The position numbers and the translations under genes were made by a program. The notes under the pieces were generated by a model. It was not told where the DNA came from, made no database searches, and worked only from the letters and a program-made list of their open reading frames with translations. DNA of 64,000 nucleotides from Escherichia coli (lineage in GTDB: Bacteria > Pseudomonadota > Gammaproteobacteria > Enterobacterales > Enterobacteriaceae). Numbering within the stretch: the first letter of the stretch is position 1; every line of letters begins with the position of its first letter. This document shows positions 12,233 to 50,503 of the stretch, piece after piece. Location of the stretch: NCBI RefSeq assembly GCF_003991155.1, contig NZ_CP031293.1. One strand, written 5' to 3'.

Positions 12233-12383
12233 AACTTTGCCTCAGGCATTAGAAATAGCGCGTTATTGTACACGGATTAATCGCACTACAAAACAGGATC
12301 ACAAACATCCTCCGCAAACAAGTATTGCAGAGTCCCTTTGTGATCGCTTTCACGGAGCATAAAAAGGGTTATCCAAAGGTCAT

Positions 12384-12462
12384 TGCACCAACATGGTGCT
12401 TAATGTTTCCATTGAAGCACTATATTGGTGCAACATTCACATCATGGTGCAGCCCTTTTGCA
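12384..12462 (+). promoter_or_regulatory. NtrC (NRI) enhancer sites upstream of glnA
   Basis: TGCACCAacatGGTGCt (12384-12400), GCACtatatTGGTGCA (12417-12433) and a third GGTGCA..TTGCAC element, matching the TGCACC-N5-GGTGCA consensus. Confidence 0.75.
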
Positions 12463-17069: not shown

Positions 17070-18443
17070 TTAAATCACCCGTGAGAACTGCTGCATCCGC
17101 GCTTTCTGGCGCAGATAGGTATCAAAGCACATGCAAATGTTGCGGATCAGCAAGCGACCTTTCGCCGTCACTTGAATCCCCTTCTCATCCACATCCACCA
17201 GCCCATCTTTTGCTAACGGGGCGAGCAGCTTGAGATCTTCCGCAAAGTAATCAGCGAAGTGCAAATCCCACTGTTGCTCAATGGGAGCGTAATCCAGACG
17301 GAAGTTGCAGATGAGCGACTTAATCACATCGCGGCGAATACAGTCATCACGCGTTAGCGCAATACCACGCCACAGCGCATTGCCTTGTTCATCCACTTGC
17401 TGATAGTACTGCTTCAACTCTTTCTGGTTCTGCGCGTAGCAGTCGCCAATCATGCTGATGGCGGAAACGCCCATCCCCAGCAAATCGGTATCGCCCTGAG
17501 TGGTATAGCCCTGGAAGTTACGATGCAACACGCCTTCGCGCTGGGCCACTGCCAGCTCGTCATCAGGGCGAGCAAAGTGATCCATACCGATAAACTGATA
17601 GCCCGATTGTGTCAGGAAGGCGATGGTTTCCTGCAAGATATCGAGTTTTTGTTGCGGACTCGGCAAGTCAGCATCTTTGATTTTGCGTTGGGCGGCAAAA
17701 ATAGTTGGCAGATGCGCGTAGTTAAAGACGCTCAGACGATCGGGGTTCAGCTCCGCCACACGTTTCAGGGTAAAGGCAAAACTTTCCGGCGTCTGTTTCG
17801 GCAGACCGTAAATCAGGTCGATGTTGGTGGAGGTAAAGCCAATCTCACGCGCATGGTTAAGCAGTGCAAAGATGAACTCTTCATCCTGCTCGCGGTTAAC
17901 CAGACGTTGCACTTCTTTGTTGAAGTCCTGCACGCCCATGCTCAGGCGATTAAAGCCCTCGGCGCGTAAATGATCGAGTACATCCAGTTCGATTTCGCGC
18001 GGATCGACTTCGATCGAAATCTCCGCATCGGCATTGAACTGGAAGTTTTCGCGCAGCAGCTTCATCAGACGGCTGATTTGCGCTTTGTTCAGATACGTCG
18101 GCGTACCACCGCCCCAGTGCAGCTGGCTCACCTTGCGCCCGGCAAAAAGCGGTGCACGATGGACGATTTCTTGCTCCAGCGCGTCCAGATACTGATCGGC
18201 CTTGTGCTGCTGGCGAGTAACTATCTTATTGCAACCGCAGAAGTAACAAAGCTTATGGCAGAACGGAATATGTACGTAGAGAGATAATGGACGCTCAGGA
18301 TAGCGCGCCACGGCTTGTAAAAACGCCTGTTCGCCGAAGTCTTCTGAAAACTCCAGCGCGGTCGGGTACGAGGTGTATCGTGGCCCGGAATAGTTATATT
18401 TCTGGATCAGGGCCAGATCCCAGTCGATTTGCTGTACAGACAT
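17070..18443 (-). CDS. hemN: Oxygen-independent coproporphyrinogen III oxidase (radical SAM)
   Basis: ORF 17070..18449; start MSVQQIDW; CxxxCxxC radical-SAM motif HIPFCHKLCYFCGC. Confidence 0.95.
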   Translation of the reverse strand: MSVQQIDWDLALIQKYNYSGPRYTSYPTALEFSEDFGEQAFLQAVARYPERPLSLYVHIPFCHKLCYFCGCNKIVTRQQHKADQYLDALEQEIVHRAPLFAGRKVSQLHWGGGTPTYLNKAQISRLMKLLRENFQFNADAEISIEVDPREIELDVLDHLRAEGFNRLSMGVQDFNKEVQRLVNREQDEEFIFALLNHAREIGFTSTNIDLIYGLPKQTPESFAFTLKRVAELNPDRLSVFNYAHLPTIFAAQRKIKDADLPSPQQKLDILQETIAFLTQSGYQFIGMDHFARPDDELAVAQREGVLHRNFQGYTTQGDTDLLGMGVSAISMIGDCYAQNQKELKQYYQQVDEQGNALWRGIALTRDDCIRRDVIKSLICNFRLDYAPIEQQWDLHFADYFAEDLKLLAPLAKDGLVDVDEKGIQVTAKGRLLIRNICMCFDTYLRQKARMQQFSRVI

Positions 18444-18631
18444 GCTCACTCCTTCCGATGGCGTCTCTGGCGGCTACGGCGTACCGGCGGATGCCCGTTT
18501 CGGGTCATCAGCCGGTTGCGCAGCCACTTTTGTCGCCGCGACAACCGCTGTAGTTTAACGAATAACCACACCAGATAACATATAACCGGAAGGGTTATCA
18601 GCAGAACGGGAAGGCCCACGGCGGCAATCCG

Positions 18632-19141
18632 TTAGTTGCCCCGCAGCAGACGCATCATGTCTTCTTGCTTCTCGTCTTCTTCCTCTTCTTCGTCATCGTC
18701 ATAAGAGAGGCCGAGTTTCTGCATCAACTCATCAATACGATCCAGTTTAGCATCCACCCAGGATTGCTCTTCGGCGCTCAGGGTTTCGCCTGCTTCCAGA
18801 CGTTCCAGCAGCGCATCCAGACGCTCATCCGTTTCCAGTAATTCCAACTCCGCCTGCGGTGAAAGCATAGGTTTCTCACTCTTCGGTTTGTGCTGTTTGG
18901 TGACTTTTTCAGTCACGCCCAATGGAATAGGGGTTTTACTGCCAATACGTGGATCTTTTGGTGCGTTCTGGCCTTTGCTGCCTGACGAGGTGTTACCGCC
19001 CGCTGCGCGGCTGCCCGGCGCATGACCACGACGTTTTTTCTGACGCTTACGGTCACGAGCTTCCTGATCCAGCTCCTCGCGTGTTTTTCGACGCGCTTTT
19101 GCATGACCTTTGCTGCGTGAGTTTGAAGATGATGGTTTCAT
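18632..19141 (-). CDS. yihI: Der GTPase-activating protein YihI
   Basis: ORF 18632..19204; start MKPSSSNSR (169 aa); highly basic N-terminus and acidic C-terminus. Confidence 0.9.
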
Positions 19142-19207
19142 AATGGTTCGTCTTTTAGCCGTTTTATTCAGTATAGATTTGCGGCGGAATCTAACAGAAA
19201 GCAAGCA

Positions 19208-19452
19208 AAGAAAAAAGGCGACAGATTACTCTGTCGCCTTTTTTCCTGACTCATAACCCTTAACGGGTCTTACAATCCTTGCAGGCCGCCAACACACCCT
19301 GTTTTTCCATTAGCCGGAACAATCCGTGTTGATTCCATTTCCGTTTAATTACGTCTCCGGACGTTTGTCTTCCTGACAATCCTCTGTCTTCGCCTCCTGG
19401 CGCTCCTGACCCTCATCCTGAGTCATTGTTCCTGTTAGCGTCCTCGCTCTAT
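19208..19452 (-). ncRNA. csrC: CsrC sRNA (CsrA-sequestering RNA)
   Basis: Minus-strand sequence ATAGAGCGAGGACGCTAACAGGAACAATGACTCAGGATGAGGG... with many GGA motifs, ending in hairpin ggcgacagagtaatctgtcgcc plus U-run; lies in the yihI-engB spacer as in K-12. Confidence 0.75.
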
Positions 19453-19722
19453 GGGTGCTACTTTACGCCTTTGCTTTAAACAAACAATCAACCGCCATCA
19501 GTATTTGCACATTTTCAGAGTTTTATATAAAAGCAATTAACTGATTTATATAGCTTATTTGACATGCATCGCAGAATTTTCTCTGCTATTTCGCATAAAG
19601 ACTATCGGCAATGTCTCACAAAGCGTATGGCTTTTACTTACAACGCTCACGCCGAAAAATCCGCCTTTTATTATGGTTCAGGTATAATCGCCGCAAAGCT
19701 TTGACTGACGGAGACGACCGCT

Positions 19723-20355
19723 TTGACTAATTTGAATTATCAACAGACGCATTTTGTGATGAGTGCGCCTGATATTCGCCACCTACCTTCCGATACCGGA
19801 ATTGAAGTGGCTTTTGCAGGCCGTTCCAACGCAGGTAAATCCAGCGCGCTGAACACGCTGACTAACCAGAAAAGCCTGGCGCGGACCTCAAAAACCCCAG
19901 GGCGCACCCAGCTTATCAACCTGTTTGAAGTGGCTGACGGCAAGCGTCTGGTTGACTTGCCTGGGTACGGTTATGCGGAAGTCCCGGAAGAGATGAAGCG
20001 CAAATGGCAGCGCGCGCTCGGCGAGTACCTCGAAAAACGTCAGAGCCTGCAAGGTCTGGTGGTGCTAATGGATATTCGCCATCCGCTGAAAGATTTGGAT
20101 CAGCAGATGATTGAGTGGGCGGTAGACAGCAATATCGCCGTGCTGGTGCTGCTGACCAAAGCGGACAAACTGGCAAGCGGCGCACGTAAAGCGCAATTGA
20201 ATATGGTGCGTGAAGCGGTGCTGGCGTTTAACGGTGATGTGCAGGTTGAAACCTTCTCTTCACTGAAGAAACAAGGCGTGGACAAGCTGCGGCAGAAACT
20301 GGATACCTGGTTTAGCGAGATGCAGCCTGTAGAAGAAACGCAGGACGGCGAATAA
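19723..20355 (+). CDS. engB: Ribosome biogenesis GTP-binding protein EngB/YsxC
   Basis: 210-aa ORF with TTG start; G1 motif GRSNAGKSS. Confidence 0.93.
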
Positions 20356-20480: not shown

Positions 20481-20589
20481 TAAAAAACGCCCCAGTCATT
20501 ACTGACTGGGGCGGCTAAAATATTCAGCCAAATCCGATTACGTGAAGTAAAAGGTCTGAAAGATAGAACATCTTACCTCTGTACCCTAC
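20481..20589 (-). ncRNA. spf: Spot 42 sRNA
   Basis: Reverse complement reads GTAGGGTACAGAGGTAAGATGTTCTATCTTTCAGACCTTTTACTTCACGTAATCGGATTTGGCTGAATATTTTAGCCGCCCCAGTCAGTAATGACTGGGGCGTTTTTTA (109 nt), the Spot 42 sequence with its terminator. Confidence 0.9.
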
Positions 20590-20736
20590 GCGACTAACTT
20601 TACTCTTTTTTGTTCAGTTCAGAAAGCATTTTTTGTAATTTTTTTTCAGTTGTTGCATAGGAATTTCTAATAGCCATCACAAAACGTGACAGCTTATGTT
20701 GCTTACTTACGAAAAAAGGGCATGTTCAGGCGAATC

Positions 20737-23523
20737 TTAGTGCGCCTGATCCCAGTTTTCGCCACTCCCCACTTCCACCAGCAACGGCACATCCAGACGG
20801 GTACAGTTTTCCATCAGTTGATGAATCTGCTTCGCGACGGCATCGACATCATCTTTATGAACTTCAAATACCAGTTCATCGTGTACCTGCATGATCATAC
20901 GTACACGCGGTTGCTCAGCCTGTAGCCACGCATCAACGGCAATCATCGCCCGTTTGATAATGTCGGCGGCGGTTCCCTGCATTGGCGCGTTAATGGCTGC
21001 ACGTTCAGCCGCTGCACGACGAGCACCATTGCTGGATTTGATATCCGGCAGATACAGACGGCGTCCGTCCAGCGTTTCAACGTAGCCCTGCTCTTTCGCC
21101 TGAGCACGGGTGCGTTCCATATACTCCAGCACGCCAGGGTAGCGTTCGAAGTAAAGGTCCATGTACTTCTGCGCTTCTTTACGTGGAATGTTCAATTGCC
21201 GCGCCAGGCCGAAAGCACTCATGCCATAAATCAGACCAAAGTTGATCGCTTTCGCGCTACGGCGTTGCTCGCTGGTTACGGTTTCCAGTGGTAAACCAAA
21301 CACTTCTGCCGCCGTAGCCCGGTGGATATCTTTTCCTTCCGCGAATGCGGTCAGCAAGCCTTTGTCACGCGAGAGATGCGCCATAATGCGCAGTTCAATC
21401 TGCGAGTAGTCCGCCGAGACAATCACATAATCCTCTGGCGCAATAAACGCCTGGCGGATACGACGACCTTCTTCATTACGCACCGGAATGTTTTGCAGGT
21501 TAGGATCGGTTGACGATAAACGTCCCGTTGCGGTTACTGCCTGGTGATAAGAGGTATGTACACGCCCGGTTTTCGGGTTGATCATCAACGGCAGCTTGTC
21601 GGTGTAGGTCGATTTCAGCTTCGCCAGACCACGATACTCCAGAATCACTTTTGGCAACGGATAGTCCAGCGCCAGTTCTTCCAGTACCTCTTCCGACGTT
21701 GACGGCGCGCCACCCGGCGTTTTCTTCAGCGGTTTAATGCCCTGTTTTTCAAACAGAATGGTTTGTAACTGCTTGGTGGAAGAAAGGTTAAATTCTTCAC
21801 CTGCAATTTCATGCGCTTTCTTTTCCAGCTCAGCCAGACGCAAGGTGAGCTCTTCAGAGTGATTGTGCAGCACTTTCGGATCGATCTTCACACCGTTACG
21901 TTCAATGCGTGAAAGCACCGGCACCAGCGGCATTTCGATATTCTCGAAGACGTTCAACGGCCCTTTGTGTTTTTGCAGATCCGGCCACATTTTCAGATGC
22001 AACTGCAAGGTGACATCTGCATCTTCGGCGGCGTAACGTCCGGCTTCTTCGAGGGCAATCTGGTTAAAGGTCAGTTGATTTTTGCCTTTACCCGCAATCT
22101 CTTCAAAAGTGATGGTTTTGTGCTTCAACCAACGTTCCGCGAGGCTGTCCATATCGTGACGCCCGGCAACGCTATTGAGAATGTAGGACTCCAGCATGGT
22201 ATCAAACGCAATCCCACGTAGTTCAATGCCGTAGTTCGCCAGAATACCGCGATCGTATTTCAGGTTTTGCCCGACCTTCAGCGCCTTTTCATCTTCCAGC
22301 AGCGGTTTTAGCAACTCGAGTGCACGCTCGCGAGAGATTTGATCGGGCGCATCAAGATAATCATGAGCAACCGGAATATATGCCGCTACGCCTGGCTCGA
22401 TAGCAAAAGAAAGCCCGACCAGGTTAGCAGAGATGTTATCAAGGCTGTCGGTTTCGGTATCAAATGCAAATACCGGCGCTTTTTCCAGCTTCGCAATCCA
22501 CTCTTTCAGTGTTTCTTCATCAAGGATGGTGACGTAGTTGTCATAAGAAATCACCGTTGCCGTCACTTCTGGCGCTTCGTCTGCAACACTGGTTTCCTGC
22601 GGCCTGGCTGCGGGTTTCACCCCTTTAGCCTGTAGCCATTTGCCCGCTTCGACATCAGCAGTCCAGCGTTTGAACTCATACTTTTTGAACAGCCCTAACA
22701 ACTCTTCCGCCGCCGGTGGCTGCACTTCCAGTTGTTCACAGGTCAGCTCCAGTTCAACGTCGGTTTTAATCGTCGCCAGCTGGTATGAGAGATAAGCAAC
22801 TTCTTTGTTTTGCTCGAGCTTCGCTGCCATTGTTTTCGCGCCACGGAAGCTCAACCCAGCAATTTTTTCTGGCTCGGCATACAGCGTATCCAGCCCGCCA
22901 AGACCTTGCAGCAATGCCTGCGCGGTTTTTTCACCGACGCCCGGTACGCCAGGAATGTTATCAGAGGAGTCACCCATCAGCGCCAGGAAATCGATGATCA
23001 GTTCTGGCGGCACGCCGTACTTATTCACCACCTCTTCCGGTCCGAGGATGGTATTCGTCATGGTGTTGATAAGCGTGATATTTGGTGTCACCAGCTGCGC
23101 CATATCTTTATCGCCAGTGCTGATCAGCACCGGACGCCCGGCTTTTTCGGCTTCGCGCGCCAGAGTACCAATAACGTCGTCCGCTTCTACGCCAGAAACC
23201 GCCAGCAGCGGCAGTCCCATCGCTTTAACCATCGCGTGCAGAGGTTCGATTTGTGCTCGCAGATCGTCCGGCATTGGCGGGCGATGTGATTTGTAATGTT
23301 CAAACAGTTCATCACGAAAGGTTTTTCCCTTGGCGTCAAAGACCACCGCTGCATGCGTCGGTTTATATTGCATGATCAGACTGCGCAGCATGTTGAGGAC
23401 ACCATACATCGCACCAGTCGGCTCGCCTGCGCTGTTAGTCAGCGGGGGAAACGCGTGATATGCGCGATAAAGATAAGATGAACCATCTACAAGGATAAGT
23501 GGATTTTGGGGGATCTGAACCAT
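20737..23523 (-). CDS. polA: DNA polymerase I
   Basis: 928-aa ORF; 5'-3' exonuclease, 3'-5' exonuclease and polymerase domains. Confidence 0.97.
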
Positions 23524-29683: not shown

Positions 29684-29803
29684 ATGCCTGGCAGTTCCCT
29701 ACTCTCGCATGGGGAGACCCCACACTACCATCGGCGCTACGGCGTTTCACTTCTGAGTTCGGCATGGGGTCAGGTGGGACCACCGCGCTACGGCCGCCAG
29801 GCA
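29684..29803 (-). rRNA. rrfA: 5S ribosomal RNA (120 nt)
   Basis: Reverse complement reads TGCCTGGCGGCCGTAGCGCGGTGGTCCCACCTGACCCCATGCCGAACTCAG...GGAACTGCCAGGCAT. Confidence 0.97.
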
Positions 29804-29896
29804 AATTCTGTTTTATTAACCCGCTTGTCGCCGGTTAATTTAATCTGTATCAGGCTGAAAATCTTCTCTCTTCCGCCAAAACACCTTCGGCGTTGT

Positions 29897-32800
<2,904 letters not shown>

Positions 32801-32982
32801 TCACAACCCGAAGATGTTTCTTTCGATTCATCATCGTGTTGCGAAAATTTGAGAGACTCACGAACAACTTTCGTTGTTCAGTGTTTCAATTTTCAGCTTG
32901 ATCCAGATTTTTAAAGAGCAAAACTTCGCAGTGAACCTTTGCAGGTACACTCTGAAGTATTTTTATTTAATCACTACAGAGA

Positions 32983-33058
32983 TGGTGGAGCTATGCGGGA
33001 TCGAACCGCAGACCTCCTGCGTGCAAAGCAGGCGCTCTCCCAGCTGAGCTATAGCCCC
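32983..33058 (-). tRNA. alaT: tRNA-Ala (UGC), spacer tRNA
   Basis: Reverse complement GGGGCTATAGCTCAGCTGGGAGAGCGCCTGCTTTGCACGCAGGAGGTCTGCGGTTCGATCCCGCATAGCTCCACCA (76 nt). Confidence 0.97.
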
Positions 33059-33100
33059 ATAACATGTAGTTAAAACCTCTTCAAATTTGCGGTGCAAATT

Positions 33101-33177
<77 letters not shown>

Positions 33178-33245
33178 GTAGAGGTTTTACTGCTCATTTT
33201 CATCAGACAATCTGTGTGAGCACTGCAAAGTACGCTTCTTTAAGG

Positions 33246-34787
<1,542 letters not shown>

Positions 34788-48260: not shown

Positions 48261-50503
<2,243 letters not shown>

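Follow-up and report, generated by a model that had tools for sequence, protein, structure and literature searches.

The csrC small RNA gene between yihI and yihA in a 64-kb segment of an Escherichia coli genome

Our analysis of a 64,000-nucleotide stretch of E. coli DNA (from contig NZ_CP031293.1; this whole stretch is called "the window" below) shows a G/A-rich unit on the minus strand that is almost certainly the E. coli csrC gene, which encodes the approximately 246-nucleotide non-coding RNA CsrC. We hold this identity with near certainty because the full-length Rfam match, the near-identity to the K-12 gene, the genomic context, the terminator, the upstream UvrY site and the GGA motifs all point to it, and we found no sequence feature that speaks against it. 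The activity of CsrA, which regulates carbon metabolism, biofilm formation, motility and virulence globally at the post-transcriptional level, is set by two decoy RNAs, of which CsrC is one. The gene is an already known one, and its presence here brings no novelty and no new biology.

Identification of the csrC gene

When the region from 18900 to 19800 is read on the minus strand, the unit starts ATAGAGCGAGGACGC at 19452 and closes in the hairpin AAAAAAGGCGACAGAGTAATCTGTCGCCTTTTTT at 19242-19209. A preliminary description, made from the letters of the sequence, had seen at 19208-19452 a GGA-rich structured unit of about 245 nucleotides, had proposed that it was CsrC, and had named an Rfam covariance-model scan as the check by which this proposal would stand or fall and an alignment to K-12 csrC as a further one. 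Both checks came out in its favor. An Rfam 15 scan of the whole window at the gathering threshold found the CsrC family (RF00084) at 19199..19452 on the minus strand; this match is full length (model positions 1-255 of 255) and scores 277.9 bits against a gathering score of 61 (E = 1.2e-87). A permissive re-scan, limited to 19000-19800, gave no credible match besides the minus-strand CsrC. In the alignment to K-12 MG1655, the non-coding RNA gene csrC (b4457, "small regulatory RNA CsrC"; NC_000913.3 4051036..4051281) matches 19207-19452 on the minus strand with 245 of 246 bases identical (99.6%). The 5' end at 19452 is as first described, and the 3' end, according to the K-12 annotation, is at 19207, one base beyond the 19208 given there. 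The GGA count and the predicted fold (below) bear out the structured unit, just as the context, terminator and UvrY site (also below) bear out its identity.

The genomic context is that of csrC. The gene order in the window is hemN, yihI, csrC, yihA (engB), Spot 42, polA, which is inverted relative to K-12, where csrC has yihA followed by spf and polA on one side and yihI followed by hemN on the other. As had been noticed from the sequence, the unit occupies the spacer between yihI and engB (581 bp), upstream of yihI and on the same strand. Kulkarni et al. found the yihA/yihI context to be diagnostic of csrC (PMC1488887). The locus thus shares with K-12 csrC (b4457, RF00084) its ends, terminator, yihA/yihI neighbors and UvrY site, and we regard the two as the same gene.

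Table 1. Positions of csrC, its sequence elements and its neighbors in the window
Feature	Position	Strand	Basis
csrC small RNA gene (5' end A at 19452, 3' end 19207)	19207..19452	-	K-12 annotation alignment (source of both ends) and Rfam RF00084
Span of the 14 GGA motifs, presumed CsrA-binding sites	19244..19443	-	Motif count and Rfam consensus mapping
GGA in hairpin loops (n = 6)	first G at 19443, 19418, 19397, 19382, 19358, 19278	-	Rfam consensus structure
GGA in single-stranded linkers (n = 5)	first G at 19432, 19406, 19373, 19342, 19336	-	Rfam consensus structure
GGA partly in stems (n = 3)	first G at 19325, 19308, 19246	-	Rfam consensus structure
Most conserved block, AGCGCCAGGAGGCGAAG; GCC-AGGA-GGC hairpin with GGA in the tetraloop	19388..19404	-	Upper-case in Rfam consensus; helix 3 100% paired
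csrC intrinsic (Rho-independent) terminator: A-run, 18-bp stem, 4-nt loop, U-run	19208..19247	-	Terminator scan, MFE fold, Rfam helix 10
RefSeq pseudogene of strain 7/2 (locus L002, 1825-1991), where no ncRNA is annotated	~19260-19426	-	Mapped to window
Candidate -10 hexamer TAAAGT (-13 to -8 from the K-12 5' end)	19460..19465	-	By-eye inference
Weak TTGTTT, ~16 nt upstream of TAAAGT	19482-19487	-	Read by eye
UvrY (BarA-UvrY response regulator) binding inverted repeat TGTGAGACATTGCCGATA (-168 to -151)	19603..19620	-	Exact match to published E. coli csrC sequence (PMC4682653)
TGTAAG half-site, 16 bp upstream of the UvrY repeat	19637..19642	-	Described in PMC4682653; found at the spacing stated there
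hemN	17070-18449	-	ORF list / K-12 annotation
yihI (Der GTPase-activating protein), downstream neighbor, ATG at 19141	18632..19141	-	ORF list and K-12 annotation
yihA/engB (ribosome-biogenesis GTPase), divergent upstream neighbor	19723..20355	+	ORF list and annotation
Spot 42 sRNA (spf), between yihA and polA	20481-20599	-	Rfam, 122.8 bits against a gathering score of 80
polA	20737-23523	-	ORF list

Distribution of csrC and comparison among genera

Of 5426 complete E. coli genomes, 5424 contain the csrC stretch, 5359 of them at an identity of at least 99%. The copy in the window is 100% identical over its full length to those of 7 of the 25 E. coli genomes in a ranked, evenly spaced sample, and at least 15 complete E. 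coli genomes match the 651-bp spacer region as a whole at 100% identity. Two of the 5426 genomes gave no csrC match, two matches are on records labelled plasmids, and some genomes have the gene in two places; these missing, plasmid or double matches could be matters of assembly or labelling, or could be real loss or duplication.

Homologues were recruited by scanning one genome per species for the exact 17-mer AGCGCCAGGAGGCGAAG from the Rfam consensus, which returned an Enterobacteriaceae set plus many chance matches in unrelated G+C-rich genomes (Pseudomonas, actinobacteria, MAGs). Thirteen of the enterobacterial loci, from Citrobacter, Enterobacter, Superficieibacter, Pseudocitrobacter, Pseudescherichia, Pluralibacter, Kosakonia, Phytobacter and "Escherichia sp. 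ESNIH1", were then scanned with Rfam, and all 13 contain a full-length CsrC (140-275 bits). YihI is encoded just downstream of csrC on the same strand in all of them, YihA is divergent upstream in 12 (the 1.2-kb locus L062 ends before the YihA position), and Spot 42 is about 1 kb from csrC in 11; L005 and L062 probably end before Spot 42. In each of the 13 homologues GGA occurs 13-15 times on the RNA strand and 0-2 times on its complement.

An alignment of 14 sequences (the window and the 13 loci) has a mean column identity of 78%. The invariance of AGCGCCAGGAGGCGAAG in all 14 is there by construction and is no independent evidence, since this exact 17-mer was the bait with which the homologues were collected. 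On the alignment as it stands, 85.5% of the Rfam structure is paired, and this falls to 40-49% after a shift of the 3' partners by 1-3 columns; the comparison is a consistency check rather than an independent proof because the structure was derived from the same family. Compensatory change is seen in 15 cells, a number reached by none of 500 shuffles, and six pairs are changed on both sides, which 150 of the 500 shuffles equal or exceed; the covariation support for the CsrC structure is modest, as the set is small and its members are closely related. The MAFFT alignment is out of register over its first 45 columns (the 5' end) for several genera, and for this reason we dropped a long-range 5'-3' pairing that RNAalifold proposed instead of the first two small hairpins.

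GGA motifs and RNA structure

Within 19208-19452 there are 14 GGA motifs on the minus strand versus 2 on the plus strand, where the means per 245-nucleotide window across the 64 kb are 3.3 and 2.8, respectively. Fourteen is the maximum for any 245-nucleotide window on either strand of the 64 kb and is reached by 0.036% of such windows. Dinucleotide shuffles of the csrC unit contain 8.8 +/- 1.9 GGA and reach 14 or more in 20 of 2000 cases (1%), so much of the GGA excess is carried by the G/A-rich composition of the unit; the strand asymmetry and the placement of the motifs in the structure are not compositional. A chance GGA-rich stretch is ruled out by the 64-kb maximum on either strand together with the 14 versus 2 asymmetry, with composition accounting for a part of the count.

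The motifs had been described as lying in predicted loops, and in the Rfam consensus structure this is so for six of them; five others are in single-stranded linkers and three are partly in stems (Table 1). The many GGA motifs, confined to the RNA strand and exposed in loops or single-stranded stretches, that characterize CsrC are thus found here, with 11 of the 14 in loops or linkers. The predicted minimum free energy of the RNA is -87.4 kcal/mol, compared with -58.7 +/- 4.2 for shuffled sequences (z = -6.8).

Eight individual motifs had been quoted for the unit, and seven of these are present literally: AGGACG (19444), CAGGAAC (19434), CAGGATG (19420), CAGGAGC (19408), CAGGAGG (19399), CAGGAAG (19375) and ACGGAAATGGAA (19344). 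The eighth, AAGGAAA, is absent, and AATGGAAAA is found at 19310 instead; it was probably taken over from the reference rather than read, because K-12 has AAAGGAAAA where the window has AATGGAAAA. This is the site of the single difference from the K-12 gene, a U here for the A of K-12 at 19309, which changes AAAGGAAAA (K-12) to AAUGGAAAA (window) and keeps the GGA. Among the genera in the 14-sequence alignment the 19309 column is freely variable (G, A, C or U) and the adjacent GGA is invariant. The A-to-U allele would turn an ARGGA-type site into AUGGA; in this lineage the capacity for CsrA might be slightly retuned as a result.

The terminator and the relationship of csrC to yihI

A terminator scan identified an 18-bp stem with 7 G-C pairs, a 4-nucleotide loop and a T-run at 19247..19208 on the minus strand. 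The same hairpin is present in the minimum free energy fold and corresponds to Rfam helix 10, for which 96.9% of the cells are paired across genera in the 14-sequence alignment. CsrC therefore has its own Rho-independent terminator at the 3' end here, and the preliminary description was correct in placing a strong terminator at the end of the unit.

On the plus strand there is a CsrC match at 19201-19245 (42.9 bits, under the gathering score), and no convergent plus-strand gene ends there. Since the A6-stem-T6 hairpin is symmetric, this match is the terminator read backwards, and a second csrC gene on the plus strand is ruled out.

The distance from the 3' end of csrC to the yihI ATG is only 65 nucleotides, the two are on the same strand, and the tandem arrangement is preserved in 13 of 13 other loci, all of which would also be true if the unit were a long structured 5' leader of the yihI mRNA, co-transcribed with yihI, and no independent small RNA. 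We consider such a leader very unlikely, because the 18-bp G+C-rich hairpin and its U-run stand between the unit and yihI and are nearly invariant across genera, because a discrete non-coding RNA that ends there is annotated in K-12, and because CsrC is regarded in the literature as a separate short-lived small RNA (PMC7652899). With csrC as a gene of its own, there may still be some low-level read-through of its terminator into yihI. The csrC-terminator-yihI tandem in every locus examined might reflect functional coupling, for example regulated terminator read-through into yihI, which, if true, would tie CsrA titration to the Der GTPase and ribosome assembly. That such coupling exists, and/or that the 19309 allele retunes CsrA capacity, seems to us unlikely; what speaks for these ideas is synteny and one single-nucleotide difference at a naturally variable position.

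Annotation of the region as a protein-coding gene

In all of the listed RefSeq genomes except K-12 MG1655 the annotation pipeline (PGAP) has placed a "hypothetical protein" under the csrC match, and one might suppose from this that the region encodes a small protein or is a decayed protein gene. There is hardly any chance that this is so. The one such record that was inspected, that of strain 7/2, marks the feature as a pseudogene ("frameshifted; internal stop"), and the curated K-12 record has the non-coding RNA instead. Neither the ORF list nor an ORF search contains a minus-strand ORF of 40 or more amino acids inside the csrC unit, an ORF track being blind to this gene, as had been remarked, and the longest minus-strand ORF wholly within the RNA has 39 amino acids and a TTG start. 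In addition, conservation across genera tracks the GGA motifs and helices and not any reading frame. The protein-coding interpretation is thus ruled out by the lack of an ORF of at least 40 amino acids and by the flagging of the RefSeq coding sequence as a pseudogene, and the "hypothetical protein" over csrC looks like a systematic pipeline artefact over a known small RNA. The present finding matters only as correct annotation: recognizing the CsrC RNA prevents mis-annotation, since the listed RefSeq records other than K-12 MG1655 carry a "hypothetical protein" at this place.

The upstream control region

A consensus sigma-70 promoter scan upstream of csrC found no site above threshold, and for this reason a weak, activator-dependent core promoter would fit the region, in which two candidate elements were picked out by eye (Table 1). 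The 18-nucleotide sequence TGTGAGACATTGCCGATA occurs once in the window, where no match is expected by chance. At csrC of E. coli, Zere et al. assigned this imperfect inverted repeat to UvrY by footprinting and cross-linking (PMC4682653), and it falls inside the published ChIP-exo cross-linking region, -223 to -143 (PMC4682653). With both the repeat and the TGTAAG half-site exact, the upstream UvrY/SirA site expected of a csrC gene is present as far as the sequence can tell. One further substitution relative to K-12, T for G at 19539, lies about 87 bp upstream of the csrC 5' end (~-87).

Sites of the TGTGAGA type are found 153-167 nucleotides upstream of csrC in 7 of the 13 homologous loci, and the exact TGTGAGA heptamer is absent within 300 nucleotides upstream in 6 of the 13 (L049, L068, L033, L031, L007 and L045); the UvrY site may be more degenerate in the genera of those six.

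Relationship to CsrB and the Rsm RNAs

CsrC shares its Rfam clan (CL00106) and its GGA-repeat design with its paralogue CsrB, and lower-scoring overlapping matches to clan members existed and were suppressed in the scan, so we also weighed whether the unit might be a copy of CsrB or of another CsrB/RsmB clan member. This is extremely improbable. CsrC is the best-scoring member of the clan here, at full length, and neither a best clan score for the CsrB family (RF00018) nor the syd/yqcC context of csrB is found; the identity to K-12 csrC is 99.6%; the yihA/yihI context is specific to csrC, where csrB adjoins syd (PMC1488887); and the UvrY repeat is the csrC variant and not the csrB palindrome (PMC4682653). 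Score, identity, context and type of UvrY site together rule out CsrB and the other clan members. CsrB and CsrC are not found from one another by sequence search (PMC1488887).

E. coli CsrB (RF00018, CL00106) is, like CsrC, a decoy with multiple GGA motifs for CsrA that is activated by BarA-UvrY and degraded by way of CsrD and RNase E (PMC7652899). It differs in being longer and in having 22 GGA motifs (PMC7652899), compared with the 14 of csrC here, and its gene adjoins syd, carries a UvrY palindrome that is nearly perfect and, unlike csrC, depends on IHF (PMC1488887, PMC4682653). The RNAs RsmX, RsmY and RsmZ of Pseudomonas and RsmB of Erwinia/Pectobacterium are likewise GGA-rich small RNAs; they sequester the CsrA homologue RsmA (PMC1488887) and are activated by GacS-GacA, the orthologue of BarA-UvrY (PMC1488887). 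They belong to different sequence families from CsrC and have different genomic contexts and upstream activating sites, and they are more stable in species without CsrD (PMC7652899).

Expected mode of action

CsrB and CsrC contain multiple high-affinity CsrA sites and sequester CsrA from its mRNA targets (PMC7652899, PMC4682653). Phosphorylated UvrY activates transcription of both genes, to which ppGpp/DksA and the helicases DeaD and SrmB also contribute (PMC7652899, PMC4682653), and IHF is required for csrB and not for csrC (PMC4682653, PMC7652899). [quoted passage not shown] Loss of either RNA is offset by a rise in the other (PMC7652899, PMC4682653).

The sequence features behind the activities of CsrC (GGA sites, terminator and UvrY site) are present and intact in the window. 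From its near-identity to the characterized gene we infer that CsrA sequestration, BarA-UvrY activation and CsrD/RNase E decay would operate here as well. BarA-UvrY would activate synthesis of the RNA, whose transcription would stop at its own intrinsic terminator. The RNA would display many GGA sites in hairpin loops and single-stranded linkers, and CsrA dimers would be expected to bind these with high affinity, as they do in the nearly identical K-12 CsrC. Together with CsrB it would then titrate CsrA off mRNA targets and so relieve CsrA control of carbon metabolism, biofilm formation and motility. RNase E and PNPase would presumably degrade the RNA in a process that depends on CsrD and EIIA-Glc.

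Other RNA features of the window

In K-12 a small protein, SpfP, is annotated inside Spot 42, and Zere et al. reported weak UvrY cross-linking near spf (PMC4682653). Three other Rfam matches in the window are above their gathering scores, namely the Erse small RNA at 49898-50149 (319.4 bits), ES222 at 12314-12421 (135.3 bits) and StyR-44 at 32808-32916 (124.9 bits), all on the minus strand; the 3' end of the Erse match reads ...AAAUGA, like the end of a coding region, and StyR-44 is directly upstream of a 23S rRNA gene. That gene belongs to a complete rRNA operon at 29686-34787 on the minus strand, which consists of 16S (33246-34787), two spacer tRNAs (33104-33177 and 32986-33058), 23S (29897-32800) and 5S (29686-29801), and which, from its position relative to polA and hemN, we take to be probably rrnA.
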